The notes: generated by a model not told the origin, from the letters alone. Counted from the first letter of the stretch, positions 1,149 through 32,905 are shown. The stretch is DNA of 64,000 nucleotides from an uncultured Bacilli bacterium (GCA_944332525.1 CALVKD010000022.1:2392-66391), one strand, 5' to 3'. Made by a program: numbers and translations.

Positions 1149-1182
1149 GAGATAACTGCAGTCTAAATAATGATAAAATAAT

Positions 1183-3284: not shown

Positions 3285-3356
3285 TAGTTAAATATCTCCT
3301 ACGTTAATTATAGAAAAAAATTTCTTTTAAAACCATAGCCGAAATGGGTTTAATTG

Positions 3357-3387
3357 ACAGGTTAAGTAATAAAAAAAACAGATTAAG
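3357..3387 (+). promoter_or_regulatory. Direct-repeat operator ACAGGTTAAG-N11-ACAGATTAAG (21-bp period), candidate LytTR regulator binding site
   Basis: Two 10-bp repeats, 9/10 identical, with centres exactly two helical turns apart. This is the architecture bound by AgrA/ComE/VirR-type LytTR regulators. It lies in the divergent region between the regulator gene (2568-3284, minus) and the lipoprotein/GH3 operon (plus). Confidence 0.45.
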
Positions 3388-3455
3388 AAAAAACGTTTCA
3401 AAAAATGAAAGCCCTTTCTTACGATGTAAAGGACAAACGTAGGAGGTTTCAACAA

Positions 3456-4055: not shown

Positions 4056-4059
4056 TTAT

Positions 4060-7395: not shown

Positions 7396-7436
7396 ACCCG
7401 GTTATGATCTTCTTAGATTATGACCGGGTATTTTTT
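7396..7436. terminator. Bidirectional rho-independent terminator between convergent genes
   Basis: Imperfect hairpin ACCCGGTTATGATC / GATTATGACCGGGT, flanked by a T-run on the plus strand and a T-rich run on the minus strand. Confidence 0.5.
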
Positions 7437-8520
7437 ATTGGTATTGCGCGTATAATGTCATATCCATATAAATTGGGGTGATGTTGGTAACATGTCCGCT
7501 ATTAGGGGTTAATTCTTTATCGGTGTACCAGCCGACAAATTCAGCTCCTTCTTTATAAGCTAATGGAAGATTGATATATTTTCCTTCTTCAACTTTATAG
7601 GTAATTGGATCGAGAGGATTAACTAAACTTCCTCCGTTTAAATCAAGTGTGATGTAGTAATAGTTTTTCGTTTCAGGAGTATCGACTCCAGCGATAACAG
7701 TCTTTAAAATCCAATTACCATTTTCTTTAACATAGATTTCTCCGGTGCTGAGATTAAAATAGAAGTCGCCATTTTCCCCGTTTTGACTATCTGGAACAGT
7801 TGAACCATATAACCAGGTTGTCGCATGCTCTTTAGAAAAAGATACTTCTTCTTGAGTTCCGTCATCATAATGAATTATTAATTTATAATTATTTTCATCT
7901 TCTTGTGTTTCAATATAGTCAATAGAAACGCCTCTTAAGCCGCGAGGAATTCTAAATTCTACACTTGGAGAATCATCGGTAAAAGAGATTGTTACAATAA
8001 CATCATAGCTAATCGGATCATAAGAAGTTGTAATCTCTTTGATAGAGACGCCGTCTTGGCCTTTAGGGACGATAAAACTAACCGGTGAGGAATCATCCGT
8101 AAAAGAAATTGTTATTTGCTGATTGCCGTTTTCTAGCGTTTCTACATTGATGTTCGCTATTCCTCTTCCGTCGACTCCGTTATACACCGGAATATAAGTA
8201 ACAAATGGTTCTTTATTGCTGTCGGTGAAGGTAATAGTTAATTTTACGCGGTTATATTCTTCTTGGAATTCGCTTGTCACATCTTTAATAGATACGCCTT
8301 CTTGTCCGTCTGCACCTTTAGGCAAAGTAAAGCTGACACTTGGCTTATCTTCGCTATTGAAAGAGATTGTGACAACAGTATTACCCTGATTATCAACGTC
8401 TGTAGTTACATCGCTTATGAGATAGCCAGTTTCTTCTTCAGCAAAAAATCCGCAGGCAGAAAGCGAAGGAAGAGAAAAGACGAGCAGAGTTCCTAAAAGC
8501 AGATTTCTAATTTTTTTCAT
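7435..8520 (-). CDS. Lipoprotein with three ~55-aa internal repeats and a C-terminal Flg_new (Listeria-Bacteroides repeat) domain
   Basis: Lipobox LSACG. Repeated GVSIKDVTSEF / GVSIKEITTSYD / GVSIDYIETQED modules. C-terminal LDLNGGS...GAEFVGWYTDKELTP matches the Flg_new GxxFxGW motif. Last gene of the 11-gene operon, with a 4-nt overlap to the upstream gene. Confidence 0.65.
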   Translation of the reverse strand: MKKIRNLLLGTLLVFSLPSLSACGFFAEEETGYLISDVTTDVDNQGNTVVTISFNSEDKPSVSFTLPKGADGQEGVSIKDVTSEFQEEYNRVKLTITFTDSNKEPFVTYIPVYNGVDGRGIANINVETLENGNQQITISFTDDSSPVSFIVPKGQDGVSIKEITTSYDPISYDVIVTISFTDDSPSVEFRIPRGLRGVSIDYIETQEDENNYKLIIHYDDGTQEEVSFSKEHATTWLYGSTVPDSQNGENGDFYFNLSTGEIYVKENGNWILKTVIAGVDTPETKNYYYITLDLNGGSLVNPLDPITYKVEEGKYINLPLAYKEGAEFVGWYTDKELTPNSGHVTNITPIYMDMTLYAQYQ

Positions 8521-10877
8521 TTGTTACCTCCCCTACTGATCAAATCGTTTTGATCAGGTATTTGATTAAATAATTTATGTTGTTGATCGTTTAAGTAAAA
8601 GCGGAATGCATTCATGCCCATCGCCATTGGAACGCATTTAGCTAATGCCTCGGCAAATTGATTTTCTGAAGGAGTTAAATTTTGACCGCTTAAGCAGGCA
8701 TAAGCGATATCCGCAGTTATTTCTTCACTTAGTGATTCATCATTTAATTTAGAAATATCAAGAGAAGAATTATTATATCCTCCTCCATAGAAACTCACCG
8801 CGGTGCAGAGATAATTTTTGCTATCTTCGTTATAGACTAAATTTTGGTTTTTAGCTAATTTCAGTAAAAGATTCTTGATTGGAAAATAGTTATCAATAGT
8901 TATCTTTTCTCCGTCTCCGAATTCACCTAAGAGCTGACCTAGTCTTTCTTCAATCAAGCACGAAGCATCAAGCGAAGCAATATCTTTATAGTCGTAGAAA
9001 CGGACATCGCCTTCTAAAGAGAGATTAACGCCTTTTTGAGTTCCAGAGATCTTATTTGGAAGAACTGGGTCTTCAAGTAATAAATCGAGAAGCTCTTTAA
9101 CAAAGGAAGGCAAGCCGTTATAGAGATAGATTCCGTTAAAATAAGTATCAAAAGCAATAGAGAACAATCCGGATTGATAGAAATATGTATCTTTGATAGT
9201 CGCATTAGTTTTTTCATCGCTAACATTATCTAAGGCGCTTTGGGTTTGTGATAAAGTCTGCTGAGAAATGTTATTATTGTCAAATAACGATGTGTAATAA
9301 GAATCAGCGTTAAATCCTTGATTTCCGTTTAAAAATTCTCCGCTGGTTAGATTATAGTTCTGATTATTATAATTTATAGTTATATTTTTATTTTCATCAA
9401 CTTGGGTGTATTCATTATTGCCGATTTTGAAAAGAAATTCTCTTGTCTGCATTAGTAGGCAGTTATCGAGTAAGAAGTCATCGCTTGAGAAAACTCTAAC
9501 CCCAGTTCGACCGTTTTTGATAATAGAATTTTTTATTGTAACGTTATTTCCTTTAACATCAATGACTGTGCCGGTGAATTCAAGGTTGTAGAGATTATCT
9601 AAGTTGTTGATATTCTGAATTTTGAGATCATTAACTGTGATATTGTCGCCATCAACATACATATTGACATTATCTTGACCATAAGCTTTGACAAATGGAT
9701 AATCAAATAAACCTAAACTGACAAATGTTAGAGGTCCGGTAAATAAATCGCCTTTTTCTTTGGAAGGGGTCAATTTTCCAGTATATTGATCAATCTCGCC
9801 GTTTTTAGGGTAAGCCAATTCATGGATAGAAATATTAAATCCATTACCGTAAAAATCTTTTTGAACGTGGATAGCCGCGTACAGATAGCTATGCTCAAGA
9901 TAATCATCTTTAAAATACTGTTTGATGTATTCATGGTTATATGTCGTTTCAAATTGATAAACTTCACTTATAAAATTGAAACTTTTCGAAGTAAAATCAT
10001 AATTGCCAAATAATTTTGTATCAGAACTTAAATATTCATTGATATAATTACCGTTTTCGTCTTGCTTATAAGTGTTTTGTAATGATTCGAGATTGGTCTG
10101 TAAACAGACGATTTCGCCATTTTCGCTTTTATTCGTGCAGGATAATAGGTCATTATAGTCATAGACATTTATGCCGTTTTCCACGATTGAGAAGGTATAA
10201 TTTGAGGTGATAAAAGCATTATTCCCCGCGCTTAATTCTAAATAAGCTTCGCCAGATCCATTAAAATAAATAACATTATCGACTAATGATATATTTGGTG
10301 AAATATTCTTAATTAAATAGCTTTGATCGCTATCTTCCGGCAATATTTTGACCTCAATTTCAAAACTAGCTAAAGTCTTTTTGTTGATATCGTGATCTTG
10401 TAAATCATATTGTCCAAAATATCTTTTTTTAGCAATTGAAGATGAAGAGGAGGCGATGTTTTTAGGATTGATGATGACCGCGCCATCTTCGTAAATAATG
10501 GCATTAAAAGATTTTGTCACAGTTTTTTTCTCGTTTTGACAGGTAATTATGACCTCACCTTCATTTAAAGCGAAAAGATAGTATTCATTGTTTTGTTTTT
10601 CAATTTTGGCATAGTCATTATCCGTGTCATCTTTATTGTCAACTGTCCAAACTAAATCATTGCCAGGGGCTAAGGTAAAGTTTTTATCAATAATCGGTTC
10701 AGCCGATAATAAATACCCATCACTAGAAATTTTATAGCCTTCATTTTCTTGATAATTCCAGGATATTCCCGTGATATCGACTTCTAAAGTATTTTTTAAG
10801 ATGGTGATATTGACAAAACCGAGAATTGCGATGACAAAAGGAATTAATAATAAGACGAATAAGGTTTTATTTTTCAT
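8517..10877 (-). CDS. Large secreted or membrane-anchored protein with right-handed parallel beta-helix (PbH1-like) repeats
   Basis: N-terminal hydrophobic signal/anchor. Repeats such as VTIKNSIIKNGRTGVRVFSSDDFLLDNCLL are typical of pectate-lyase-fold beta-helices. Asn/Tyr-rich. 4-nt overlaps on both sides. Confidence 0.5.
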   Translation of the reverse strand: MKNKTLFVLLLIPFVIAILGFVNITILKNTLEVDITGISWNYQENEGYKISSDGYLLSAEPIIDKNFTLAPGNDLVWTVDNKDDTDNDYAKIEKQNNEYYLFALNEGEVIITCQNEKKTVTKSFNAIIYEDGAVIINPKNIASSSSSIAKKRYFGQYDLQDHDINKKTLASFEIEVKILPEDSDQSYLIKNISPNISLVDNVIYFNGSGEAYLELSAGNNAFITSNYTFSIVENGINVYDYNDLLSCTNKSENGEIVCLQTNLESLQNTYKQDENGNYINEYLSSDTKLFGNYDFTSKSFNFISEVYQFETTYNHEYIKQYFKDDYLEHSYLYAAIHVQKDFYGNGFNISIHELAYPKNGEIDQYTGKLTPSKEKGDLFTGPLTFVSLGLFDYPFVKAYGQDNVNMYVDGDNITVNDLKIQNINNLDNLYNLEFTGTVIDVKGNNVTIKNSIIKNGRTGVRVFSSDDFLLDNCLLMQTREFLFKIGNNEYTQVDENKNITINYNNQNYNLTSGEFLNGNQGFNADSYYTSLFDNNNISQQTLSQTQSALDNVSDEKTNATIKDTYFYQSGLFSIAFDTYFNGIYLYNGLPSFVKELLDLLLEDPVLPNKISGTQKGVNLSLEGDVRFYDYKDIASLDASCLIEERLGQLLGEFGDGEKITIDNYFPIKNLLLKLAKNQNLVYNEDSKNYLCTAVSFYGGGYNNSSLDISKLNDESLSEEITADIAYACLSGQNLTPSENQFAEALAKCVPMAMGMNAFRFYLNDQQHKLFNQIPDQNDLISRGGNK

Positions 10878-14525: not shown

Positions 14526-16370
14526 TTAGAATCTTCTTAATAGTTTTTTTATGAATTGCTTAGATAATGTAAAATCTTCTTTTGAATAAGTTTTGTTAAT
14601 TAAATCAAGTAAGTCTTCTAAACCTTGTTCGACATAGTCTTCAAAGCGTCCATCGAGTTTATTTAAGATTTTACGGCAGAGCATAAAATCAAGAGCGTCT
14701 TCTTTTCTTCCTCCAGCAGCAACAAAAACTGGGGTGAACAGAATAATTTGGTTGAGAATACGGTTACCAAATGTTACATCAAATGTCTCATAGATATAAT
14801 CTGTAAGGATTTTAAATTTTGCTAAATCATCTTTTGATAATTGATAATCTTCGTTATTTTGAGCTTCAGAGAATAAAGACTGCAATTTGCTATAGGAGAG
14901 AGTGATTTTCTCTGTTTCTCCTTCTACTGGGAAATAATCATTTTGCTCATTAAAGGAAATAGTGATAGCCCGGTCATAGACTTTATCAGTGATGGTATAA
15001 GTCGAGTCATCTTTATTAGCAGTTCCGATAAAATAAGTTGTCGGAGCGATATCGAGAATTCCATTTTCTAAATGATCTGGTGCAGTAAAATTAAACGGCA
15101 AGTTCATGATTTTTAATTTCCATTGATCAATAGGATATTCAAGAATTGATAAGAAATCAGCAAAGTAATATTCAACGCGCGAGATATTCATTTCATCAAG
15201 AACCATGATATTGATATGGTTATCTCTATAAGTAGCTTGATATAAACGCTTTAAGAATTCTGTTTCATTATAAGATTTAGAGAAATCATTATAGTAACCT
15301 AATAATGATGTTCTATCTCTCCATGTTGCTTGTACTGGAGTAAAGAAAGACTCTTCGCTGATAAATTCTGAGAAATATCTCGCTAATGAAGATTTACCGG
15401 TTCCTGATAAACCTTCAAGAATGATTAATCTTGAGGCTGATAAAGCTGAAATAAAGCAGCGGATAGTATTGATATCAAAATAGAGTTTTTCTTCTTTAGC
15501 TAAATAATTTCTAAATTTGGTAACTAAGTCAGGTAAGGTAATATCATCATTAAATTCTTCATTTTGATATGTTGCTAAGACATCAATTTCACATAGAGAA
15601 GGGAAAACCTTTTCTTTAGTGAGTTCTTCATTATCGGATATAGGTGAAGCAACAGCTTGGTTAACTAAGGATGAATTATTAACTGAAGCTGCAGAAGAAG
15701 GTGAAACTTCACCAAAAGTTTCTGCTAGATGACCTTGTTTAACTTGGTCATTGAGTTCTTTTTCTTCTTGTTTCCTTTCTTCGCTTTCTTGCTCTTTTGT
15801 TTCTTTATTGAAGAAGCGGAAAGGTTTATCAATTGATTTTAAATTGATAACTAGCATTGCTGCGAATAAAACAATTGAGCCGAGAATAATGAAAATAATT
15901 AATCCGACAAATAAGGATTCTAGAACGAATAAAAAGGAATTTCCAACATATTCCCAGTTAACCGGAATATGAGCGATAATGCCAATTACTGACGCTAAAA
16001 TAAGGCAGATAAAGAATGTTGCAACATAAATGCCTATCCATTTTAATGATGCAGCTTTTTCTTCATAATATTTAGCTAAACGCATTTCATAGATAAATGC
16101 CGCGGCAAATAGTAATGAATAAACGATTACCATGCTAAATAAAATATATGTACCAAATGAGGCATCAATGCTCGGTAAGGATAATATTTTTCCTAGCATC
16201 TGAATTGGATTATCTTCTTTCATTAAGCCTTTTGCGTCTAGACATAATCCTGAAAATACAGTGACTAGTAAATAGAAATAAACTATCGCTAGAGCAATAA
16301 AGTTTTTTCTTGTGAAATGTGTTTTAAATCTCGGTTTTTCCATGTTTATTTCCTCCATCTCCATAAGCAC
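14526..16370 (-). CDS. Membrane-anchored McrB-family AAA+ GTPase/ATPase (4 N-terminal TM helices, charged linker, C-terminal AAA_5/McrB-like domain)
   Basis: GTG start (ORF-track M). Four hydrophobic helices in the first ~180 aa, then an E/K-rich linker. Walker A ILEGLSGTGKSSLA. Walker B MVLDEMNISR resembles McrB DEINRAN. IGTANKDDS resembles the McrB NTAD motif MNTADRS. Confidence 0.55.
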   Translation of the reverse strand: MLMEMEEINMEKPRFKTHFTRKNFIALAIVYFYLLVTVFSGLCLDAKGLMKEDNPIQMLGKILSLPSIDASFGTYILFSMVIVYSLLFAAAFIYEMRLAKYYEEKAASLKWIGIYVATFFICLILASVIGIIAHIPVNWEYVGNSFLFVLESLFVGLIIFIILGSIVLFAAMLVINLKSIDKPFRFFNKETKEQESEERKQEEKELNDQVKQGHLAETFGEVSPSSAASVNNSSLVNQAVASPISDNEELTKEKVFPSLCEIDVLATYQNEEFNDDITLPDLVTKFRNYLAKEEKLYFDINTIRCFISALSASRLIILEGLSGTGKSSLARYFSEFISEESFFTPVQATWRDRTSLLGYYNDFSKSYNETEFLKRLYQATYRDNHINIMVLDEMNISRVEYYFADFLSILEYPIDQWKLKIMNLPFNFTAPDHLENGILDIAPTTYFIGTANKDDSTYTITDKVYDRAITISFNEQNDYFPVEGETEKITLSYSKLQSLFSEAQNNEDYQLSKDDLAKFKILTDYIYETFDVTFGNRILNQIILFTPVFVAAGGRKEDALDFMLCRKILNKLDGRFEDYVEQGLEDLLDLINKTYSKEDFTLSKQFIKKLLRRF

Positions 16371-19000
16371 ATTGTTGTATCAAAATAGAATTGACCATAA
16401 CCAGCAGTTATTGGTGTCGCTGATGATGTTTTTTCATATACTACAGTACCATCACTAGTCCAGCTAGGATCCTTATTTTTATCTAGAAGTTCTCTAATGG
16501 AATCAGTACTGTTATATAGACTCTTATCTGAAGCTTTTACAATAACATTATTCAAATAATTATCAATTGTACTGGAAGTATCTTTGAATGTAGAGTTATA
16601 TCTGCTCGCATCTGCGTTGATATTTACATTGTTACCATAGCTACCATATTCAAAAGATGAATTTTCCAAATATGTTATAGATATATTATTTGTCCATAGA
16701 CTATTATCTGTTGGAGCAAGGGGTTTCTCGTCCCAATATCCATATTTAATTGACGCTTCGGCAGTATATGATAAATTCAATGGTAATGCTTCAATAAAAC
16801 TTCCTGCAAAGTTTATGTACCAACGATTATTCTTTTTAACTGCTAAATTTAATGTCATATTTTCATAAACAGGTTCACCAGTTTGGTAATCTGTTGTAGT
16901 TTGGACTTTGATAGTTTGACTAAATACATCATCGGCTGTTTGATATGATTCAGATTTAGAAGGTGTTATTCGAGGAGTAGTATTTCCGTTGTTTGGCCAA
17001 AAGTAGAAATAAGTATTACCGTTTGAATCAGTATAAGTATTATCGTAATAGTTAAATGATGAATTATTATTGTGAGATTTAGGGTAGATAAAGATTGAGG
17101 ATAACGCTCCATCATTTAAATTGTCTAAGATAGCTTTTGTTAGAGCGTCTTTACTTAATCCACCCAAAATAAAATCACGAATTAATTTTGCTATGTCAAC
17201 ATTATCCATGCTACTGCTGCCACGGAAATAACAAGACCAATCATCATCTAGCTTTGAAAATTCAGATGAATTGTTCTTAAAATTGCTGTTATTTGTGAGA
17301 TTAATGTTTCCACCTAATCTGTTATTATTACCGGAAACTGTTAAAGTACCATCAATAGTTACATCCGGTAAGTCTGTAATTTTATTCCATTCGGCATAGA
17401 GAGAATTACTTCCATATGGATTTATTGTATAGTAGACAGGATAAAGGAAATTATTTAAAGTCATCAATCCAGCATTATCGCTAAAATGTACTGACGAGGA
17501 TGTGTCACAATAGACTTTACTTCCTGGGAACATATCAACTCTTTGAGTCCAAGTGAATGATGAACTATGTGTTAATTTTAAGTTAATCCAAGGTGGAATT
17601 GGAAAGTGGACACCAACCATATCTAGTGTTACACCAATTGGTGGTAAACGATCAGACACTGAGAATTCTAAATTCATTTTTAATGAGTTTAACTGTATTT
17701 CCGCATTATTTGCCGTGTATATTTCATCATAATTAACATACGGAAGATATTTTCGATAATCTGTTTTTGTGGAATCAATTGTATGCATGCCTTCAACAGA
17801 ACGAATGATGTAGGAATCAGAAGAATTACGCGTATTTGATAATAGGAATGTATTATCAGGCCCAATAACATTCATAATCGTTCGATTATATGCGCTATAA
17901 GCGAAGAGTTCAGTTAAACCATATAATTTTCCGCCATATTCGAATTTAATGGTTGTATTGATATAAGGCATTGAAAATAACGAGAAAGGAACACTTTTTG
18001 AAGTATATGATCCGACAGTATGTCCGCCGCCACCAAAGTCTTCAACTAAGAAACCAGAATAAATAGAAGCATTATTTTTAACTGTTATCTGACCTTCTCC
18101 TGTTGAATCATAAATCAAGCCATGGCCGTAAATTGTTGATCCATCCTCCATCGTTATGGTATGTCCGTTTAAATCTAAGGCAGTATATTTTCCAGATATG
18201 ACATGGCCAGAAAGTCCAGATCCACTTGTACCATTTTGGGCTTCTAAGACTAATTTTGCATTAGATTCAAGAGTTAAATCATTTTGTAAAACTATAGTGA
18301 TTAAATTATTCGCGGCAGTAACTGCGCTATAAGCATGAGAAGCACTAGCACTGCTTGGATTATTAGTAAAAGTAGTTTCATCAGAATAATTGGTCCCGTC
18401 GTTAAGAACAAATTTTACTGTCTTATTACTAATATTAGTAACGCTTAATGGAACATAAGTATTAATTGCTTCGCCGCTACCATTAGCGCCTGGATCAAAA
18501 ATCGCTGTGCCGCTATTTTGTGAAGTTGGAGATGAGTTATAATTTAATTTTATAACCGGTGCTGAACTATCGTTAATATAGTCTGACATCGTATAAGAAG
18601 AATAATCTTTTTCGACCTTAGTTATTTCAATTTTTGTAATCTTATTGCCGTTAAGAGGATCTTCGATATGGTAATTATTTGAAGAATCATCAAAAAGATA
18701 TTCAGTATTTGTAACTGTTTTATTGTTATAAGAAAGAGTTGTTTTAACTTCTAGTCCTTCAAAATGAGTATCAGTTGAACTCAATGAAAATGGTAAGCTA
18801 ATATCATCACCGATATCACCCATCATTTCATAGGTTTTACCTTGTCCGTCATTAACGATAATTGAGATATCACCGTTTTCCCCGGTCAAAGATACCATAT
18901 TGTTTGTAAGCACGATAAAAGTACCATTGGCTACGATTAAACTAGACATGGTAATAAAGATTAACATTGCTAATAAAGTTTTAAATTTGAAATGTTTCAT
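16346..19000 (-). CDS. Large secreted Asn/Ser/Thr-rich protein, probable beta-helical surface protein
   Basis: N-terminal signal/anchor (LIFITMSSLIVANGTF). Gly-rich repeats (NGTSGSGLSGHVISG...GHTITMEDGSTIYGHGLIYDSTGEG). 884 aa with no catalytic motif recognised. 25-nt overlap with the downstream gene. Confidence 0.45.
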   Translation of the reverse strand: MKHFKFKTLLAMLIFITMSSLIVANGTFIVLTNNMVSLTGENGDISIIVNDGQGKTYEMMGDIGDDISLPFSLSSTDTHFEGLEVKTTLSYNNKTVTNTEYLFDDSSNNYHIEDPLNGNKITKIEITKVEKDYSSYTMSDYINDSSAPVIKLNYNSSPTSQNSGTAIFDPGANGSGEAINTYVPLSVTNISNKTVKFVLNDGTNYSDETTFTNNPSSASASHAYSAVTAANNLITIVLQNDLTLESNAKLVLEAQNGTSGSGLSGHVISGKYTALDLNGHTITMEDGSTIYGHGLIYDSTGEGQITVKNNASIYSGFLVEDFGGGGHTVGSYTSKSVPFSLFSMPYINTTIKFEYGGKLYGLTELFAYSAYNRTIMNVIGPDNTFLLSNTRNSSDSYIIRSVEGMHTIDSTKTDYRKYLPYVNYDEIYTANNAEIQLNSLKMNLEFSVSDRLPPIGVTLDMVGVHFPIPPWINLKLTHSSSFTWTQRVDMFPGSKVYCDTSSSVHFSDNAGLMTLNNFLYPVYYTINPYGSNSLYAEWNKITDLPDVTIDGTLTVSGNNNRLGGNINLTNNSNFKNNSSEFSKLDDDWSCYFRGSSSMDNVDIAKLIRDFILGGLSKDALTKAILDNLNDGALSSIFIYPKSHNNNSSFNYYDNTYTDSNGNTYFYFWPNNGNTTPRITPSKSESYQTADDVFSQTIKVQTTTDYQTGEPVYENMTLNLAVKKNNRWYINFAGSFIEALPLNLSYTAEASIKYGYWDEKPLAPTDNSLWTNNISITYLENSSFEYGSYGNNVNINADASRYNSTFKDTSSTIDNYLNNVIVKASDKSLYNSTDSIRELLDKNKDPSWTSDGTVVYEKTSSATPITAGYGQFYFDTTMCLWRWRK

Positions 19001-19003
19001 CTT

Positions 19004-20005
19004 TTATTCTTTCTTTTTTGAATTTATCGTTTTTTCATTTACTTTAATTTCGCCATTAAGGTTATCAATAACTTTCATGGTTCCTTCTTCAGTATCAGCT
19101 TCTTCTTTAGAAATAAATTTTCCGTTTTCGAATATATAGCGATATCCTTTATAAATTAATTCTTGATGAAATGTATTAGTTATTGATTCTTCAATATCAT
19201 CAAAGTCTTTGATTAAATCGGTTAAAAGCAAAGTTCTTTCTTGAATAGCTTTTTCATATTTGCTGCGGTAATGGTCAAACATGAAGTAGCAATAAATAAT
19301 CGCGATAATGGTAATTATTCCGGCACCTGATTGAAGAAAGATAATAAAGATTCCTACCATTGGAATTTTGGTACCAGTATACTTACCGACAATTTTATCA
19401 AATGTTAAATAATTTCCGTATTGCGATTGAGAATCATCGGTATTATTTGCATCGCCTTGAGTGAGAAAATGATATTGATTATCAACAATATCTATTCTGA
19501 CAACTCTATGAACGATTGTGACATTGTTATTGTTTTTAAAAGCGATTATATCATATAGTTTGATATCTTCGGGATTATTGACTTTTTTGATAGTTATTAC
19601 ATCATATGTTGCAATTTGGTTATTCAGATGGTTATCGATAAGATAGGTGTTTTCAGGATTCTTTTTTTCCATTGATCCTGAAGCGATAACAACGACTGAT
19701 GTATCATTAATCATCAAATTATCGTTAAAACGGTTGATGATAGAAAAAGTCAAAAATAAGAGAATAATGGCAAAAAGAATATAAGTTAAAGTTTTTCCTA
19801 ATATAGAAAATACTTTTTTTGTCTTACTTTTTGCTTTTTGCTCATCAATGATTGCTTGATCAATTAAACTGATGTCTTCTTTTCCTTCTTCAATATTAGC
19901 GATATTGTATTTAAAGTAATATCTAAATAATACGGTAAATACTGCTGAAAACGAAAGAAGGCAGATGAGAGTTACGACCAAGGATAAAATCTCAATGTTA
20001 CTCAT
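19004..20005 (-). CDS. sipW: Sec11/SipW-type (S26B, archaeal/ER-type) signal peptidase I with extra N-terminal TM segment and long C-terminal cytoplasmic tail
   Basis: Catalytic boxes VVIASGSMEKKNPEN (SGSME Ser box), TIVHRVV (His box) and LTQGDANNTDD (KGDNN-like box). Flanking TM helices. ORF-track TTG start at 20047 is replaced by the ATG at 20005, 2 nt after the upstream stop. Confidence 0.7.
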   Translation of the reverse strand: MSNIEILSLVVTLICLLSFSAVFTVLFRYYFKYNIANIEEGKEDISLIDQAIIDEQKAKSKTKKVFSILGKTLTYILFAIILLFLTFSIINRFNDNLMINDTSVVVIASGSMEKKNPENTYLIDNHLNNQIATYDVITIKKVNNPEDIKLYDIIAFKNNNNVTIVHRVVRIDIVDNQYHFLTQGDANNTDDSQSQYGNYLTFDKIVGKYTGTKIPMVGIFIIFLQSGAGIITIIAIIYCYFMFDHYRSKYEKAIQERTLLLTDLIKDFDDIEESITNTFHQELIYKGYRYIFENGKFISKEEADTEEGTMKVIDNLNGEIKVNEKTINSKKKE

Positions 20006-20621
20006 CGTCGTATACCGAAATTGCAAAGATTGAAGAATCTGCTGCAATATTTAAATAGCTAAGAATTTTCGATAAGTTATCATTAGGTGATATTTCCCCA
20101 TAGTTTAACTGACAGGAAATGTTTAAATAATAATCAGTATTAATAGAAACGTTACCATCGACAATTTTAAAAGTCATTGAATCGGCAGGAGTAGTTACTA
20201 TTGACGATGGAGAAAAAGTTACTAGACTGCTTTTCTCTCCGATATATTTAGAAATTGTTAAAGAAGTTTGCAAAGCATTGTTTTTCTGTAAATAGGTCGC
20301 ATTTAAATTTTGTAAATCAATATCAATATTAATTAAATTTAAATTCTCATTAGATAAAAAAGATACTGGTAAAGAAAATGTCATACTTGCAGAACTTATT
20401 GATCCTGTTTGCACTTCTTTTTCATAACGGTAACTAACTTTATTTGAAGTAATCGATAGAATTTTACTTTGGTTATTTTTAGTTTCAACAGTCGCGGCAT
20501 TAACTTGAAATGTTATATCTTGACTTTGATTACCTGTAGTTAACCAAGTTGAAAAGCCAACGCTGATTAGACTAAGCGTTGCAATAGCTAATATCAGATT
20601 GACTTTTCCTAACTTGATCAT
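19998..20621 (-). CDS. Small secreted protein with SipW-cognate-type signal peptide (TasA/CalY-like candidate), paralog 3
   Basis: N-terminus MIKLGKVNLILAIATLSLISVGFSTW. 207 aa, in the size range of camelysin/TasA proteins. Immediately upstream of the SipW-like peptidase. Confidence 0.5.
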   Translation of the reverse strand: MIKLGKVNLILAIATLSLISVGFSTWLTTGNQSQDITFQVNAATVETKNNQSKILSITSNKVSYRYEKEVQTGSISSASMTFSLPVSFLSNENLNLINIDIDLQNLNATYLQKNNALQTSLTISKYIGEKSSLVTFSPSSIVTTPADSMTFKIVDGNVSINTDYYLNISCQLNYGEISPNDNLSKILSYLNIAADSSIFAISVYDDE

Positions 20622-20632
20622 ATTGATTAATT

Positions 20633-21367
20633 TTATGCTGGAACGTATGAAGTTAATGTAATTGTAAATTTTTGACCATTTAAAGCTTTAAGTGCTTCTA
20701 ATGCGGTGATGACATCATCTAAATTGTCATCATTTGCAAATTTAGAAGGATTAAGATTGATTCCTTCAACTGCAAATGCACTTCCCCAAGCAAAAGAATA
20801 TGTCGCGGTGACTTTTAAGTCAGTATTACCGTCACCTGCTGCCTCAAATGTTAAACCGTTGCCTTCATCACCTGGAAGGGGTGTTCCGGTTTTATGTGCA
20901 AATAAACTAGTATTAGAATCAGTTAATGCGTTTCCATTTCTTTGAGGTGCGGTAATATAATTTTCCCCGATTAAATTGCTATAAGCAGATGGATTATCCC
21001 ATTTAATATAAACTCCGACATCCTTTGTAAAATTACCTTCGGCGTTTAATACATCGCTGATGGTAAAAGAAAAGTTAAAAGTTAAATCTTCATAACTTTC
21101 TCCGTCCCAAACAATCGGACCCTCATCATCATCTTTTTTTGCATCAAATACAATGTCTTGATCAGTTGAAGTAATTTCACTTATAACAAAGCGCTTATCG
21201 CTGACATCGCTAACGGATACGTTGAAATCATTAAATGTTTTGGTGCTTGTGCTTTGAATTACCCATGATGAAAAAGCTACTCCAACAAGAGAGACAGCAG
21301 CTAATCCAAAAAGAGAACCAGTAAGAATTTTAACTTTTGTCATTTTATTCATAATTAAATCCTCCAA
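20633..21367 (-). CDS. Small secreted protein with SipW-cognate-type signal peptide (TasA/CalY-like candidate), paralog 2
   Basis: N-terminus ...LVGVAFSSWVIQSTSTKTFNDF; compare TasA LVGGGTWAAFNDI and CalY IGGGTFAFFSD. Shares C-terminal motifs (FAWGSAF, ALNGQKFTITLTS) with paralog 1. Confidence 0.55.
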   Translation of the reverse strand: MEDLIMNKMTKVKILTGSLFGLAAVSLVGVAFSSWVIQSTSTKTFNDFNVSVSDVSDKRFVISEITSTDQDIVFDAKKDDDEGPIVWDGESYEDLTFNFSFTISDVLNAEGNFTKDVGVYIKWDNPSAYSNLIGENYITAPQRNGNALTDSNTSLFAHKTGTPLPGDEGNGLTFEAAGDGNTDLKVTATYSFAWGSAFAVEGINLNPSKFANDDNLDDVITALEALKALNGQKFTITLTSYVPA

Positions 21368-22153
21368 TTATTTTTTTTCGGCCACTACTTCGGCAGTGAG
21401 AGTTAGTTGTTTGCCATGGAGAGCAGTATGCAAAGCTTTAAGCTCTTGAGTAATTTTATTCGCGGCATCAGTTTCATCTTCATATGTCATTGAGTTATAG
21501 TAATTGGCCGGTGACATTTCGTTAAAGAAACTGCCCCAACGGAAATCAAGAACTTTACCTTGGAGAGTTATGACCGTTAAGGCTCCATCAGTTGCCGTTT
21601 CTTGATTTGTTAAGTCAATTTCTGCTGGGGCGGCAAGATATTCCCAAGAATCGTTGGCTTCTAAGCCAGTTGATGACATAGCAGTTTTTTGAGTTACGCG
21701 TGAATCACCTAATAAATTCTCTTCATCTTGCGTAAGGTTAGGAGTGTTGACAGCATAAGTACTGTCGTCATATTTCAAAGAGAATTTTAAAGTTAGATTT
21801 TGTGTTCCTTTATCAAAAAATTCTGAACCATATTTTAATGTAATATCCGCGGTAACCTGTAATGCTGTTGGGTCAAAAGCTCCTTCGTCGGTTTTAACTA
21901 AATTACTATCATTTTCTGTGAGCTTAACATTTTCTTTAAGCTCTATGAGACTATCTGTTAGTGATACAGAAAAATCAACAGAAGTATTCTTTACTGTATC
22001 AACGTTGATTGTGGCTGTTGCGTCATCGGTATTATTATTGACTCCAACAATATAGGTTGCAAAACCTGTTGTCAGCAACGCAACTCCGGCAAAGGCCATA
22101 ATGCCGGTAACTACCCATTTTCTCCTGGTAGTCAGGTTTGTTTGCTTTTTCAT
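21368..22153 (-). CDS. Small secreted protein with SipW-cognate-type signal peptide (TasA/CalY-like candidate), paralog 1; first gene of the operon
   Basis: N-terminus KWVVTGIMAFAGVALLTTGFATY. 261 aa. FRWGSFF and ALHGKQLTLTAEV are paralogous to gene 20633-21367. Confidence 0.5.
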   Translation of the reverse strand: MKKQTNLTTRRKWVVTGIMAFAGVALLTTGFATYIVGVNNNTDDATATINVDTVKNTSVDFSVSLTDSLIELKENVKLTENDSNLVKTDEGAFDPTALQVTADITLKYGSEFFDKGTQNLTLKFSLKYDDSTYAVNTPNLTQDEENLLGDSRVTQKTAMSSTGLEANDSWEYLAAPAEIDLTNQETATDGALTVITLQGKVLDFRWGSFFNEMSPANYYNSMTYEDETDAANKITQELKALHTALHGKQLTLTAEVVAEKK

Positions 22154-22200: not shown

Positions 22201-22477
22201 ATGTAAATATTTAATATAAAAAGATAATATTAGAAATATGCATAAATAATATAATATATGAAAAAAAATACAAATTATATTGCAAAATTATGCTTAATTT
22301 TTGCTTGAAATTAGAAATATATAAAAACAATATATTTTTGAATTCAATATAAATTTTATAATAATGTAATATTGTTATTATTTTGTGCTGCTTTAGACAC
22401 TATTTAAGAAAAAAAGTTCGTTTTTGATTAAAAAAAATGATAATTAATTTAAAATATATTAAGGAATGGTTGCCTTT

Positions 22478-24001
22478 ATGAAAAAGATTATTGGGATTTT
22501 GTGCTTAGGAATTTTTATTTTCCTTTCTTCAATAATAATCTATGAAGCATCACTAAATGGAAATGCCTCTTCTTCAAAAAGCGGTTTTTTAACCTCTTTA
22601 TTTGATTTTGGACCAAAAGAAGCAGAAATAGTCCCTCTAGACAAGATAACTATCAATAATGATTCTGAATTATACATAGGTGAAAATGAATCATTAAATA
22701 TTTCGTTTTATCCAGAAAACGCTTCGGACAAGAGAATAAAAGTTATCAGTTCAAATAAAGATGTTTTATCAGTAAGCAACAACCAATTACATCCTTTAAA
22801 AGCAGGAGCATCGATAATTACTGTGATATCTGAGGAAAATAATCAAATAAAAACAGAAGTAACTTTTGAAGTTAAAGAGAAAAAAGTGGAGACATTATCT
22901 CTAAATTTGCCTGATACTTTAAAAGAGGGAAATAGTTATTTTTTAAGAGCTTCAAGTAACCTAGGAGAAATAAGTTTCACCAATTTGCAATTTGAATTTG
23001 ATGATGAATATTACTCTTTTAACCAAACTAACAATGTTTTAACCTGCCTAAAATCTGGATCCGGTAATATTGCTTTAACATATTTATTAGATTCTAATAT
23101 AAAATTTAACAAAAATTATCTTATCGAAAATCAAATATATAAGCAAGTTAACCATTTTAACTTTACTTTACCAGATGAAATTTATGTCGGTGATCACCTT
23201 AACGGAGAGTTTTCTTTTAATGATGATGCAACTCAAAAAGACTATGTTTGTTCATTAGATGGTCAGCTTTTTTATAATGAACTTCCGATTGTTTCAAATT
23301 TGCAATCGTATAATTTAGAAATTATTCCGTTAGGTAATATGTCATTAACAAAGAAATATCAAATTAATCCTTTAGAAGTAAAAGCTAAAGAAATAATTAT
23401 TAATACTTCCACTTTAACCTATGGTAAGAATGAAAAATTATCATACGCGGTGGTTAGTCAGCTAGCAAACCGCGCGGTAACTTTTAATGAAGTTACATTT
23501 ACTTCTTCTGATGAAAGCATATTAAAAATTGATGAAGGCGGAAATATGATTGCTTTTAAAAAAGGCCAAGTAACAATAACTGTCACATTAAAAAAAGATC
23601 CATCAATTTCTCAAAAAGGTACAATTACTATAACTTCACTAGATGAAAATACCTTCAATGAAATTAATCATGTCATTAGAAAACTAGTGGGGCATTTCGG
23701 ATTATTCTTAGTTACTGGTTTAAGCGGAATTGCCGGTTTATATTTAATATTTGAGAAAAAAATTAATAAAAAAATTGTGATTATTTCTGTGATAATATAC
23801 GGAATATATGGCTTAACTTTAGCTATTATTTCTGAGCTTGTTCAACTAACTGCGAATAACCGCGGACCAGGAATTAATGATGTTTTAATTGATTACTCCG
23901 GCTATCTTGCGGGAATTTTAATATTTTTATCAATAATATTTATTTGTTATTTTGTTAAAAAGAAAAAATCAATGAAGAATAAAGAATTAAATTCTCTCTA
24001 A
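22478..24001 (+). CDS. Surface protein with Big_2-like Ig domains and a C-terminal VanZ-like membrane domain
   Basis: Signal/TM at the N-terminus. Central beta-rich repeats (SVSNNQLHPLKAGASIITVISEEN...). C-terminal 4-TM VanZ-like segment (HFGLFLVTGLSG...NNRGPGINDVLIDYSGYLAGI). ATG at 22478 is preferred over 22466, which abuts the RBS. Confidence 0.5.
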   Translation: MKKIIGILCLGIFIFLSSIIIYEASLNGNASSSKSGFLTSLFDFGPKEAEIVPLDKITINNDSELYIGENESLNISFYPENASDKRIKVISSNKDVLSVSNNQLHPLKAGASIITVISEENNQIKTEVTFEVKEKKVETLSLNLPDTLKEGNSYFLRASSNLGEISFTNLQFEFDDEYYSFNQTNNVLTCLKSGSGNIALTYLLDSNIKFNKNYLIENQIYKQVNHFNFTLPDEIYVGDHLNGEFSFNDDATQKDYVCSLDGQLFYNELPIVSNLQSYNLEIIPLGNMSLTKKYQINPLEVKAKEIIINTSTLTYGKNEKLSYAVVSQLANRAVTFNEVTFTSSDESILKIDEGGNMIAFKKGQVTITVTLKKDPSISQKGTITITSLDENTFNEINHVIRKLVGHFGLFLVTGLSGIAGLYLIFEKKINKKIVIISVIIYGIYGLTLAIISELVQLTANNRGPGINDVLIDYSGYLAGILIFLSIIFICYFVKKKKSMKNKELNSL

Positions 24002-30973: not shown

Positions 30974-32905
30974 TTAGCAATGCTTTACGAAGAGAGATTT
31001 TATCTTTGTTAAGAAAAAGATTAAAATCGGTAAGAATAAAAATATTAAACTAATTGCAAATGAGATATGATGTAAGGCTGCCGTTCTAAGACAATAACCA
31101 AATACTAAAACATTTAAGAAGTTATATAAATATTCTACAAAGAACGAGAAGGCAAAACCTAATAGATATAAGATAACTGCCATTATTGAAATTTCACTTA
31201 ACGATAATGATGCTACATGGAGTTTACTAACACCTAAAGTTTCTAATGCTTCATATTCTTTGCTATGATTTTTCTTAGACACAAAGACATAGACAATTGA
31301 GAAAATTAGATATACCATTCCGAAAAATCCAAAGAAAGCATACGCGGCTGTGTCATAATATTTTTTATTAGTCGTAGCGAAAAGTGAATAAATTTGGAAT
31401 GGATTTTCGAAAGAGTATTCATCGTTATATGAAAGCGATAGTTTTTCATAATTATCGTAGGCTTCATAACTATTTATTGAAATAGTATAGGCTTCATTAA
31501 TGTTACTATCGTAAGAACTAATATCATCCGGTAAAGCTTTAACTATTACCGAATTGTAGATACTATAATCATCATAAGAATCAGCAAAATCCATATTGAA
31601 GTTTACATTATCGGTATAGATTTTGAATGAATCTTGACCGCAGGTATATAATCCAGTCAGTTCTTTATGATCTTCTGCAAGTTTGTTATAACGGGTAATA
31701 ATATCATCATAAGATGCTTTAGAAGTTCCTGTTTCGTTATATAAAAGTTTATAAACTGCGATATCACTTATCATGTAATCTAATTCTTTGCTCGGAATTT
31801 CACCAGAAACTAATGAAACATGAAATACTGTCTCTAAATTATCGCTATATTGAAAGATTCTCGTTTTTTTATCTAATTCGAGTTCATCAAATCCGTAATA
31901 GTTTTTTAGAATAGTTTGAGAAGAGATACTTTTAGCGGCATTATTTCCAAAAAGCAGGGATATATCGGTGTCTAATGTCTCGGAAAAAGAACCATTATCT
32001 GTTGTCACACCTAGTTGATAACCATTATCGACAATTAAATCTATTGATTTAGCACCCCATGAATTATATATTTCATTATTTGCTACTATAATCAATCCTA
32101 AAGATAAAATCATCGCTAAATAAATACCAATAAATTTGCTGAATTTATATTTTAAATTAGCGAATAATAATGAAAATAATTTAGAAAATGCGAGTTTATC
32201 TTTTTTATTTACAGCATCAGACTCGATATTTTCACTAAGGGTATTATCAATGATTTCACCATTATCAATTGTTATTTTACCATCGATAAATTCTTCAATA
32301 TCGCTAGTATCATGCGAAACAGTGATAATTAGTTTATTTTTTGATTCTTCTTTTAACAATTTAAAAATCTTTAAAGTGATTTCTTTGTTGACTCTGCTTG
32401 ATGGTTCATCGACGAGTAAGACACTTACATTGAGAAGTAAACTTCTAACAATAGCGATTCTTTGTTTTTCACCGCTTGATAGTTCTTTTGGATACTTTGT
32501 TAAAAAAGAAGAATCCAAATCCATTTTCTCAAAGTAATCAAGTACTCTGTCTTTGTCGAGTTTAATCTTTTTTAACGATAAGAATAACTCTAAGTTTTTC
32601 TCAATATTTATTTCCTCAATTAATTCAATATTTTGAGGGATAAAGCCGACATTATTAATCAAAAAATTTTCTCTATCTGAAGCTTTTAAATTTATAACAT
32701 TTTTGCCGTTATAAGATACTTCACCGTGATCTAATGTTAGATTTAATCCTAAAATATTTAATAATGTTGTTTTACCAGACCCGCTTTTTCCATCAATTAA
32801 GAACATTCCCTTATCAGGAAAAGTAAGATTAACTGGTCCAAAACGGAAGGCGGTTAAACCATTTTTAAGTTTAAATTTTATTGAAGCATTTTTTACATTT
32901 ATCAT
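30974..32905 (-). CDS. Fused ABC transporter: N-terminal ATPase plus C-terminal FtsX/MacB-type permease
   Basis: Walker A GKSGSGKTT, signature LSSGEKQR, Walker B LLVDEPSS. C-terminal TM helices. Paralog of the upstream gene with a 4-nt overlap. Confidence 0.75.
   Translation of the reverse strand: MINVKNASIKFKLKNGLTAFRFGPVNLTFPDKGMFLIDGKSGSGKTTLLNILGLNLTLDHGEVSYNGKNVINLKASDRENFLINNVGFIPQNIELIEEINIEKNLELFLSLKKIKLDKDRVLDYFEKMDLDSSFLTKYPKELSSGEKQRIAIVRSLLLNVSVLLVDEPSSRVNKEITLKIFKLLKEESKNKLIITVSHDTSDIEEFIDGKITIDNGEIIDNTLSENIESDAVNKKDKLAFSKLFSLLFANLKYKFSKFIGIYLAMILSLGLIIVANNEIYNSWGAKSIDLIVDNGYQLGVTTDNGSFSETLDTDISLLFGNNAAKSISSQTILKNYYGFDELELDKKTRIFQYSDNLETVFHVSLVSGEIPSKELDYMISDIAVYKLLYNETGTSKASYDDIITRYNKLAEDHKELTGLYTCGQDSFKIYTDNVNFNMDFADSYDDYSIYNSVIVKALPDDISSYDSNINEAYTISINSYEAYDNYEKLSLSYNDEYSFENPFQIYSLFATTNKKYYDTAAYAFFGFFGMVYLIFSIVYVFVSKKNHSKEYEALETLGVSKLHVASLSLSEISIMAVILYLLGFAFSFFVEYLYNFLNVLVFGYCLRTAALHHISFAISLIFLFLPILIFFLTKIKSLFVKHC

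Follow-up and report, generated by a model that had tools for sequence, protein, structure and literature searches.

The four genes at 19004-22153 of the window (the whole 64,000-nt stretch of DNA that was analysed, from an uncultured Bacilli bacterium) encode three small proteins, P1, P2 and P3, of a new, uncharacterised secreted-protein family, and a 333-aa signal peptidase which, judged by its sequence, is SipW-like in class but no SipW orthologue. The genes are co-directional on the minus strand and come first in one operon of 11 genes (22153-7435) in an RF39-like gut Bacillus. An earlier note made from the sequence had described them as a sipW-tasA-like module. The ORF positions and sizes that it gave were exact, with all four on the minus strand by ORF calling, and the four genes are real, but they make up only 4 of the 11 genes of the operon. 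Its interpretation was borne out for the class of the peptidase, its extension and the presence of cognate substrates, but not for the identity of the substrates as TasA or camelysin.

Operon structure and synteny

The intergenic spacing across the 11 operon genes was -11 to +15 nt, and a perfect hairpin between convergent genes is the likely operon end (Table 1). The operon was syntenic in about 36 loci of RF39-like gut Bacilli. In all of these that were long enough to reveal it, the order was kept: P(n), peptidase, GTPase, DUF2357 protein, ABC ATPase, permease, beta-helix protein and lipoprotein. The window carries three copies of the paralogue and the other loci two to seven, in a fixed order with the P1-type always first in the cluster and the P2-type last before the peptidase. 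P3 was confined to the lineage of the window (among the loci, only L001-L003).

Table 1. Features of the 11-gene operon and its end in the window.
Feature	Position	Strand	Basis or remark
P1, 261 aa	21368..22153	-	most conserved paralogue; P1-type RRKW..ALLTTGFAT[WY]
P2, 236-244 aa	20633..21367	-	P2-type paralogue; ORF calling
P3, 207 aa	19998..20621	-	divergent third paralogue; family HMM match 3e-13
S26B (Sec11/SipW-type) signal peptidase, 333 aa	19004..20005	-	TIGR02228 match; SEC11A/C in PDB
Secreted protein, 884 aa	16346..19000	-	N-terminal TM segment ends ANG↓TFIV, 18917-18931
McrB-like AAA+ GTPase, membrane-anchored, 605 aa	14526..16343	-	AAA_5 in orthologues; PADLOC; motifs
McrC-like partner, cytosolic, 442 aa	13196..14524	-	DUF2357-type N-terminal domain
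ABC transporter ATPase, 243 aa	12475..13206	-	Pfam ABC_tran 5.5e-27
Polytopic permease, 534 aa	10874..12478	-	ABC_tran_2 / 12TM_1 type
Extracellular protein, N-terminally anchored, 786 aa	8517..10877	-	right-handed beta-helix-like region
Lipoprotein, 361 aa, last operon gene	7435..8520	-	Flg_new (Listeria-Bacteroides repeat) 4e-11
Hairpin, perfect, 15 bp	7396..7429		between convergent genes

The starts of two genes can be read in more than one way. The peptidase ORF (19004-20047) gives 347 aa from a TTG and 333 aa from the ATG at 20005, which is the start used in public gene calls and leaves an overlap of 8 nt with the P3 gene. P2 has 244 aa from a TTG, and 239 or 236 aa from the ATG at 21352 or 21343.

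An extended Sec11-type signal peptidase

Translation confirmed the three boxes named in the earlier note (SGSME, IVHRV and QGDANN), with Ser111 in ASGSME (19673-19675), His166 in IVHRV (19508-19510) and Asp185 in QGDANN (19451-19453). The peptidase matched TIGR02228 (sigpep_I_arch) with 67.6 bits (cut-off 51.85; E = 1.1e-18), and its score for Pfam Peptidase_S26, the model of ordinary SPase I, was 16.8 bits, below the threshold of 22.9. An ordinary bacterial SPase I was therefore rejected. It was also rejected as a SipW orthologue, because it reached 56.1 bits against the Bacillus SipW equivalog NF046067 (cut-off 190) and has 333 aa with three TM segments. Its best solved relatives were SEC11C and SEC11A, to whose catalytic residues its own align. 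S111 (SGSM), H166 (VHR) and D185 (GDxN) were invariant in all 23 orthologues aligned. These results agree with the Sec11/SipW-type call of the earlier note. The same Ser, His and Asp boxes are found in Sec11/archaeal signal peptidase I (MEROPS S26B), and the His stands where bacterial SPase I has Lys.

Hydropathy placed TM segments at residues 9-27, 72-90 and 219-237, behind which lies a tail of 96 residues (238-333), in line with the extra N-terminal TM region and the tail of about 100 aa noted earlier. The predicted layout is a cytoplasmic loop (28-71), an extracellular catalytic domain and a cytoplasmic tail (238-333). All 23 orthologues were extended (310-379 aa) and kept both the extra N-terminal helix and the tail; the first helix was highly conserved, and the tail contained a conserved juxtamembrane segment. 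In comparison with Sec11/archaeal signal peptidase I, therefore, this enzyme differs in an additional N-terminal TM helix, which is among its most conserved parts, a cytoplasmic loop of 44 residues and a cytoplasmic tail of 96. With the tail predicted to lie in the cytoplasm, the earlier suggestion that the peptidase is linked to the downstream ATPase is a plausible one.

P1, P2 and P3 belong to a new family

The relationship among the three small proteins, which had been called paralogous, was barely visible pairwise and held by profiles. BLASTP gave E-values of 0.005 and 7e-4 for two pairs and no match for the third, while the P2 and P1 families, compared by hhalign, gave a probability of 98.4% (E = 9.6e-15). 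The family HMM, built from 150 representatives, matched P1 at 2e-21 and P3 at 3e-13, with no matches elsewhere in the window beyond P1, P2 and P3. On the basis of these profile comparisons, the three are true paralogues of one family. At 50% identity the family falls into no fewer than 881 clusters (P2 profile search, E <= 1e-3), and no relative of it was found in Pfam, NCBIfam or the PDB. The 109 homologues of P1 were all unnamed, and none had a Pfam domain.

The AF2 model of P2 (pLDDT 87.5) showed an unstructured stretch (residues 20-53) and, beginning near residue 54, a beta-rich domain. In the model of P1 (pLDDT 71.5), residues 1-54 were left unmodelled with pLDDT below 50. Foldseek found no PDB or viral fold neighbour for the P2 model. 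For the P family the best E-values were 0.03 and 0.15 with TM-scores below 0.25 in the PDB, and none of the PDB chains, pilins, TasA and AbpA included, was a significant neighbour.

A conserved motif at the end of the signal peptide

The N-terminal strings pointed out in the earlier note were present on translation: GFATY in P1 (22052-22066), AFSSW in P2 (21263-21277) and GFSTW in P3 (20544-20558). They are instances of a family-wide motif at the end of the signal peptide, [GA]-F-[AS]-[STA]-[WFY]-[VI]-[IV]. Among 438 distinct N-termini, 427 bore the motif, with percentages of G77/A22, F89, A52/S45, then S/T/A, and W81/F11/Y6. No other part of the protein was as rich in information: this block reached 3.07 bits, and the best one in the folded domain 2.65. 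In a set of 761 ORFs (80 aa or longer) from the window and 40 related loci, the motif occurred in the P family and in the 884-aa protein encoded after the peptidase, and nowhere else; outside the P family, it was restricted to large proteins within the same clusters. This occurrence was far beyond chance. The 884-aa protein is a lineage-specific insertion between the peptidase and GTPase genes with no Pfam or NCBIfam match, and is probably an extra substrate of the peptidase.

Judging from the sequence of the motif, the P-family anchor is most likely cut at G-F-A↓S-W. Around this predicted bond, subsites P3 and P1 would be small, and P2 and P2' aromatic. The TasA site, T-W-A↓A-F, shows the same unusual arrangement, one that ordinary signal peptidase processes poorly; its aromatic P2 and P2' residues hinder LepB (PMC10269814). 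The signal end thus fits a SipW-cognate-like behaviour, that is, a specialised cleavage region beside a dedicated S26B peptidase. The string TFNDF, which had been taken as an echo of TasA, was not kept even in close P2 orthologues when aligned, so the resemblance is due to chance.

A putative surface fibre or matrix

We put the chance at about even that the 11-gene operon is a dedicated processing and sorting system whose paralogues build a surface fibre or matrix. In this model, the paralogous small beta-rich proteins and at least one large protein would be inserted in the membrane via an N-terminal signal-anchor ending in the motif, where the adjacent Ser-His peptidase would cut. Cleavage would free a new N-terminus with a strand-like x-V-x-V-x-x-V segment 13-20 residues on, which the AlphaFold monomer leaves unpacked and which may insert into a neighbouring subunit by donor-strand exchange. 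The paralogues would then form a heteropolymer in which the gene order reflects distinct subunit roles, P1-type first and P2-type last. The extra TM helix, cytoplasmic loop and tail of the peptidase would couple it to the GTPase and the McrC-like protein, a McrBC pair possibly exapted from restriction to a membrane function, and the ABC transporter, beta-helix surface protein and lipoprotein would complete the apparatus.

Donor-strand precedents are TasA (PMC9674648) and BsaA (PMC11580942). Residues 41-50 of P2 were conserved (2.30 bits) and yet lay in no DSSP strand, next to residues 20-40 with pLDDT of 44-59. Residues 41-50 themselves had pLDDT of 78, so the segment may instead pack on its own domain.

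Type IV pilin sets offer an analogy only. They too are small paralogous subunits in a fixed operon order, each with its conservation highest in the N-terminal processing motif, and they have a dedicated membrane peptidase with an operon NTPase and a polytopic membrane protein. However, the hydrophobic segment precedes the cleavage motif in the P family and follows it in pilins, the peptidase here is a serine S26B enzyme whereas prepilin peptidase is an aspartic A24 enzyme, and no PilB or PilC homologues were found in the operon.

Alternatively, the P proteins may be surface or envelope proteins that do not polymerise, for example with binding or scaffolding roles, in an envelope or polysaccharide system linked to an ABC transporter and containing a beta-helix enzyme, with the peptidase only maturing or releasing them; the P proteins would then have an accessory role. 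We regard this as possible, though clearly less probable than the fibre. The ABC ATPase, 12-TM permease, beta-helix protein and lipoprotein are as conserved as the peptidase, there is no structural likeness to any pilin, and the same signal on large non-family proteins suggests a sorting tag that is not specific to pilins. However, an invariable arrangement of two to seven tandem paralogues is typical of multi-subunit fibres, as is a strand-like N-terminal segment that is both conserved and unpacked, and the known SipW substrates TasA and BsaA are polymers.

Comparison with TasA, camelysin and BsaA

The earlier note had placed the three proteins in the TasA/CalY M73 family and their signals in the SipW-cognate type. 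P1, P2 and P3 gave no match at E <= 1 to Peptidase_M73, TIGR04088, TIGR04089 or TIGR04090, and Peptidase_M73 matched 0 of 103 P-family members (E <= 0.01), whereas the controls, TasA and a plasmid TasA-family protein, scored 129 and 271 bits on Peptidase_M73, and 38 and 50.6 bits on TIGR04088 (cut-off 19). In hhalign, the P-family profiles reached probabilities of 3.9% and 0.3% against TasA, and 11.5% and 0.2% against a five-sequence TasA-family profile. A profile search of the PDB did not find TasA at E <= 1, and 5OF1 and 8AUR were absent among the best 50 Foldseek matches of the P2 model. With the HMMs and hhalign negative, and the controls scoring on the HMMs, P1-P3 were rejected as TasA or camelysin (Peptidase_M73, NF046066). 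For the tasA half of the proposed module, which the note had itself tied to a match with TasA, camelysin or SipW-cognate models, none was found.

It is accordingly improbable that the genes are a divergent tapA-sipW-tasA or calY-type matrix module with P1-P3 as remote TasA or camelysin homologues, even though a SipW-type peptidase adjoins secreted beta-rich proteins of about 200-260 aa with TasA-like aromatic P2 and P2' residues at the predicted site, and the kinship of AbpA and TasA is itself only at the detection limit (PMC9245690); the profile and fold searches and the lack of conservation of the 'FND' echo speak against it. The likeness is one of organisation. In tapA-sipW-tasA of B. subtilis and sipW-tasA-calY of B. 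cereus, a Sec11/archaeal-type Ser-His peptidase also stands beside its own substrates, and in the former these are likewise beta-rich proteins of about 200-260 aa with aromatic P2 and P2' residues and a mature N-terminal stretch unstructured in the monomer. The system described here differs from tapA-sipW-tasA in its substrates, which have no detectable sequence, profile or Foldseek relation to TasA/Peptidase_M73, in their number (two to seven paralogues, compared with TasA plus TapA), in the peptidase (333 aa, three TM segments and a cytoplasmic tail, compared with about 190 aa and two TM segments in SipW), and in belonging to an operon of 11 genes that also encodes a GTPase pair and an ABC transporter.

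The sipW-bsaA-bsaB-bsaC operon of C. perfringens (TIGR04090) similarly combines SipW with at least two paralogous matrix proteins and a large secreted protein. For BsaA, N-terminal donor-strand polymerisation has been proposed, with the oligomer membrane-anchored before SipW cleavage (PMC11580942). Unlike BsaA, the P family had no TIGR04090 match and no evidence of an isopeptide Asn-Lys-Glu triad, and the operon has no type IV pilus link and different accessory genes.

A membrane-anchored McrB-like GTPase and its partner

The GTPase has four TM segments (15-166) followed by a charged helical linker, as predicted by hydropathy, a Walker A motif GLSGTGKS (15390-15413), a Walker B motif VLDE (15192-15203) and the 'NxD' signature ANKDD (15006-15020). 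T-A-N443-K-D445-D and the Walker motifs were invariant in 18 orthologues. The McrB assignment, made from sequence comparison, rests on weak scores: AAA_5, found in 16 of the 18 orthologues, scored 22.5 bits, just over the cut-off, and the sole PDB match of the NTPase domain was McrB 6hz4 (E = 0.56). A match to ATP synthase subunit b (TM plus coiled coil) was non-significant (E = 0.23). In the McrC-like partner, DUF2357 was found in 11 of 19 orthologues (best E = 9e-08), with a weak precomputed match on the homologue in locus L045. The protein ends in a zinc ribbon (CPxC..CPxC, residues 391-415), and its C-terminal half had no invariant acidic or lysine residues apart from the Zn-ribbon cysteines. 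Canonical McrBC has a PD-(D/E)xK nuclease in McrC and a DNA-reading McrB N-domain, neither of which was found here, and with four TM helices at the McrB-like N-terminus canonical McrBC restriction was rejected.

A membrane-associated McrBC-type (CoCoNuT-like) anti-phage system, in which the GTPase pair would be the effector and the secreted proteins would sense at the surface, act as decoys or mask receptors, also seems improbable: the PADLOC candidate model PDC-M26A matched the GTPase (6.6e-39), the pair is of the NxD McrB-like and DUF2357 McrC-like kind, and the NxD clade consists mostly of predicted defence systems (PMC11090510), but the McrC-like protein lacks conserved nuclease residues, the McrB-like N-terminus has no nucleic-acid reader, PADLOC showed only generic ABC ATPase similarity in the rest of the operon, and the synteny of the whole cluster is unlike that of defence islands. 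Cross-locus identity was 46-61% for the GTPase where it was only 26-39% for P1, which argues for a core, not mobile, function.

The operon resembles CoCoPALM, an association to which Bell et al. 2024, eLife (PMC11090510) gave a name but no description, and for which no sequences or gene lists are available. Shared features are a McrB-like GTPase with a shortened NxD signature and an N-terminal membrane segment, its pairing with a DUF2357 McrC homologue, and a signal-peptidase-family gene in genomic association, the peptidase gene lying directly upstream in about 36 loci. According to PMC11090510, the GTPase of CoCoPALM carries a fused FtsB-like part made of one TM and a coiled coil, whereas four TM helices and a short charged helix are found here, and Bell et al. 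2024 make no mention of a secreted-protein family, an ABC transporter or RF39. Tentatively, and with less confidence than in the fibre or matrix itself, the operon might represent an undescribed class of Gram-positive surface filament in RF39 gut Bacilli, with a new family and fold, an extended Sec11-type peptidase, and assembly or secretion driven or gated by a McrBC-derived membrane GTPase motor and an ABC transporter. If so, it would give the CoCoPALM association its first worked example, and likewise the exaptation of a restriction-enzyme NTPase for envelope biogenesis.

Distal genes of the operon

The ABC ATPase was 60-68% identical across loci. The permease had about 11-12 TM segments by hydropathy and scored 26.9 bits on PF16949, over the cut-off, and PF09847 was found on its orthologues. 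The 786-aa protein was conserved across loci, with Beta_helix in 2 of 10 orthologues (2.5e-05) and a weak polygalacturonase match. Orthologues of the lipoprotein held the same position in related loci.

Organization of the operon

ORF analysis placed the four minus-strand ORFs, coding for three small secreted proteins (P1, P2 and P3) and a signal peptidase, exactly where the earlier note had located them, and every short string quoted there was confirmed by translation (GFATY, AFSSW, GFSTW, ASGSME, IVHRV and QGDANN). They are the first four of 11 co-directional genes, which span 22153 to 7435 with intergenic gaps of -11 to +15 nt. A GC-containing hairpin with a perfect 15-bp stem and a trailing T-run (7396-7429) marks the end of the series; it lies between convergent genes and looks like a bidirectional terminator. 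This hairpin was the sole notable feature in the promoter and terminator scan; the AT-rich sequence otherwise gave background, with 81 promoter-like sites vs. 78.8 expected. Neither tRNA genes nor Rfam families at gathering threshold were found in the 64-kb window.

Coordinates of the secreted proteins and the signal peptidase
Feature	Position	Strand	Remarks
P1	21368-22153	-	261 aa, ORF call
P2	20633-21367	-	244 aa from TTG, 236-239 aa from ATGs
P3	19998-20621	-	207 aa, ORF call
Signal peptidase	19004-20005	-	333 aa from ATG, start shared with public gene calls
884-aa secreted protein	16346-19000 (motif 18917-18931)	-	tag IVANG↓TFIV, after the peptidase

The divergent neighbour of the cluster (22466-24001, plus strand) codes for 511 aa with Big_2 Ig-like domains and a C-terminal VanZ membrane domain, and the same gene adjoins the cluster in L003, another locus of this lineage. 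Elsewhere in the window, two tandem overlapping minus-strand ORFs of exactly 643 aa each (30974-32905 and 32902-34833) occupy the sole stretch with negative GC skew.

The signal peptidase

The peptidase scored 67.6 bits with the archaeal/ER-type model TIGR02228 (curated cut-off 51.85), and failed both Pfam Peptidase_S26 (16.8 vs. 22.9) and the Bacillus SipW equivalog (56.1 vs. 190). Its only solved relatives were SEC11C and SEC11A, subunits of the human signal peptidase complex. Ser111, His166 and Asp185 were invariant in 23/23 orthologues from related loci, and hydropathy indicated TM segments at 9-27, 72-90 and 219-237. Because the catalytic domain is outside the cell, the Lys-rich loop of residues 28-71, with invariant G41 and D44, and the tail of residues 238-333, in which a juxtamembrane segment and a Y..G motif are conserved, would be cytoplasmic. 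The extra first TM helix was among the best-conserved parts of the 23 orthologues, and the copies in the loci (n=37) had 310-379 aa, except for a 509-aa outlier in L031. Judged from these alignments, the extension is a family trait. The score above the TIGR02228 cut-off and below that of Peptidase_S26, together with the catalytic residues, the TM layout and the conserved extension, therefore bore out the description of the enzyme as an extended SipW-type peptidase.

The P proteins form a new protein family

The paralogy of P1, P2 and P3, also proposed in the earlier note, was settled by profiles, which were required as pairwise BLASTP barely saw the links and was almost uninformative. The P2 family aligned with the P1 family by hhalign over 221 columns (probability 98.4%, E 9.6e-15), and an HMM from 150 representatives matched P2 (3e-69), P1 (2e-21), P3 (3e-13) and no other protein in the 64-kb window. 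An exhaustive profile search at E<=1e-3 recovered at least 881 clusters at 50% identity, a family without a Pfam, NCBIfam or PDB relative: none of the homologues was named or carried a Pfam domain, none of 103 diverse members matched Peptidase_M73 and no other Pfam family was matched consistently, and the family profile had no match among PDB sequences. The broad family alignment was also used in a word-indexed profile search, which added nothing and gave no names.

The AlphaFold2 model of P2, built from a 103-sequence alignment, was confident (mean pLDDT 87.5) and consisted of a TM helix (5-19), an unstructured region (20-53) and a beta-rich domain that includes three short helices. The P1 model was similar but weaker (pLDDT 71.5, residues 1-54 below 50). 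Foldseek found no significant neighbour of the P1 and P2 models in PDB (best E 0.03 and 0.15, TM-scores <0.25), and only insignificant matches of the P2 model among viral models.

The three proteins had been taken for relatives of TasA and camelysin in a sipW-tasA-like module. At E<=1, however, none of them matched Peptidase_M73 or the TasA equivalog, or the SipW-cognate models TIGR04088, TIGR04089 and TIGR04090. The positive controls, B. subtilis TasA (sequence checked against 8AUR) and a plasmid-borne TasA-family protein, scored 129 and 271 bits with Peptidase_M73 and 38 and 51 bits with TIGR04088. In hhalign, the P-family profiles reached probabilities of 3.9% and 0.3% with TasA, and of 11.5% and 0.2% with a five-member TasA-family profile. 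The string TFNDF of P2, read as an echo of TasA, was not kept even in 75-85%-identical orthologues. Of the proposed module, the SipW-type peptidase with cognate substrates stood and the kinship to TasA did not; by their profiles, the substrates are instead a new family.

A conserved motif at the predicted cleavage site

Of 438 distinct N-termini of the P family, 427 carry a motif, which among them reads [G77/A22]-F89-[A52/S45]-[S39/T31/A21]-[W81/F11/Y6]-[V/I]-[I/V]. It lies near residue 30 and is preceded by an n-region rich in Lys/Arg and free of acidic residues, then by a hydrophobic core. No other block of the protein carried as much information as these 10 residues (3.07 bits per column); the FxWGS block in the folded domain had 2.65. 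Conservation at this level is not a property of generic Sec signal peptides, but of dedicated sorting signals. A class III (type IV pilin) signal was rejected, since in these proteins the hydrophobic segment comes before the motif, not after it.

G-F-A↓S-W is the sole site that satisfies the -3/-1 rule, and cleavage predicted here would put aromatic residues at P2 and P2'. Aromatic residues also flank the SipW site of TasA in this way, T-W-A↓A-F, and have been shown there to render it a poor substrate for the ordinary signal peptidase LepB (PMC10269814). Given the motif conservation and the TasA-like aromatic residues, the P proteins would function like SipW-cognate proteins, yet outside the known classes. 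We consider it likely that they are substrates of the peptidase; they would then make up a third class of SipW-type peptidase substrates, independent of the other two, and their motif could sharpen the specificity rules of S26B (aromatic P2 and P2'). The 786-aa protein, a beta-helix member of the operon (8517..10877), was rejected as a substrate, since positions -3 and -1 of its N-terminal region are not occupied by small residues.

Beyond the P family, the tag was seen only on the 884-aa protein and on two large proteins of the related locus L013. The 884-aa protein had no family match, is located between the peptidase and the GTPase described below in the three loci of the window lineage only (L001-L003), and could be an additional substrate, large and adhesin-like. 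In L013, an accessory set upstream of the main cluster (426-6702) contains an extra P paralogue of 224 aa and two large tagged proteins: one of 850 aa, with GQS↓TWI and a C-terminus that is weakly Hint-like (Hom_end_hint, E 0.0035), and one of 806 aa, with GYS↓AWLV. A similar pair occurs in L008. The tag would therefore delimit a small set of exported proteins, a "regulon" of the peptidase, and [GA]-F-[AS]-[STA]-W-[VI]-[IV] after a TM segment would predict the exported "cognate" proteome of these bacteria, large adhesin-like proteins included.

Possible polymerisation of the P proteins

An alternating, conserved segment, [IVF]-x-V-x-V-x-x-V (2.30 bits), was found 13-20 residues past the motif aromatic, and AlphaFold left it outside the monomer sheets in the P1 and P2 models. 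In TasA polymers, and as proposed for those of BsaA, such an N-terminal segment enters the next subunit (PMC9674648; PMC11580942). The related loci possess two to seven tandem P paralogues, with the P1-type always first and the P2-type always last, directly before the peptidase, an arrangement that recalls major and minor subunit sets. Because of the unpacked conserved segment, the TasA/BsaA precedent and the ordered paralogues, polymerisation is our preferred, if tentative, reading. The function we favour for the operon, at roughly even odds, is a dedicated system that would process and assemble a heteromeric surface fibre or matrix.

A McrBC-like GTPase pair in the operon

Synteny was analyzed with tblastn and ORF analysis in 35 genome loci and several metagenome contigs. 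The order was invariant: the P genes, the peptidase, a ~600-aa protein, a 420-490-aa protein, an ABC ATPase, a ~535-aa permease, a ~800-aa protein and a Flg_new lipoprotein. The ~600-aa protein is a McrB-like GTPase, in which four TM helices and a charged linker are joined to an AAA_5 domain with invariant motifs GLSGTGKS, VLDE and T-A-N-K-D-D. The last corresponds to the shortened signature, "NxD", that is seen in one McrB clade (PMC11090510). McrB was its sole NTPase-domain match in PDB, a weak one (E 0.56); enterotoxin matches of its profile were spurious. Of 19 orthologues of the 420-490-aa neighbour, 11 matched DUF2357, which is the N-terminal domain of McrC. This neighbour ends with an invariant zinc ribbon, and the family alignment contained no conserved nuclease residues. 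PDB sequence-profile searches with this McrC-like family and the beta-helix protein gave nothing significant.

The GTPase (14526-16343, minus strand) matched the PADLOC candidate defence model PDC-M26A (6.6e-39). Across related genomes, however, the GTPase was 46-61% and the ABC ATPase 60-68% identical, whereas P1 proteins were 26-39% identical, a contrast which, as a sequence pattern, fits a core machine whose surface parts evolve fast and not a defence island. The PDC-M26A family may include, or be confounded by, GTPases of envelope operons. The unit is an 11-gene apparatus including a putatively exapted McrBC-like GTPase pair.

The cluster shares three defining features with CoCoPALM, an association named by Bell et al. 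2024 (PMC11090510): a McrB-like GTPase with the NxD signature, an adjacent DUF2357 protein and a signal-peptidase gene. With regard to a further feature, a GTPase fused to an FtsB-like TM plus coiled coil, four TM helices and a short charged helix were seen, and a match to ATP synthase subunit b, a protein of TM plus coiled coil, was not significant (E 0.23). The supplements of Bell et al. gave no CoCoPALM details, and no later description was found in the literature, which so far names such an association of a McrBC-like pair with a secretion operon in passing only. The present cluster provides a gene-by-gene example of a nuclease-less McrBC-like GTPase pair within a membrane secretion/assembly operon.

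Distribution

The nearest record to the cluster was an "uncultured Bacilli" MAG (84-99% protein identity), and further carriers were Candidatus Onthovivens, Candidatus Enteromonas, Clostridium sp. CAG:568 and "uncultured Mollicutes". We take the carrier genera to be RF39 genera in GTDB. RF39 is an abundant, uncultured lineage of reduced genomes in the human and animal gut. The P-family members are the best candidates for surface-fibre or matrix subunits of RF39 organisms. A cell wall in most members, and possibly sporulation, have been predicted for RF39 (PMC10868615); our literature search found no paper connecting RF39 with signal peptidases.

Six loci (L006, L008, L013, L014, L017 and L018) came from genome records under the names Oscillospiraceae, Paludibacteraceae, Hallerella, Lachnospiraceae, Alistipes onderdonkii and Bacteroides uniformis ("cleanbin" isolates). 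Such oddly titled bins are probably mislabelled or contaminated. The other carriers were all Bacilli or Mollicutes MAGs.
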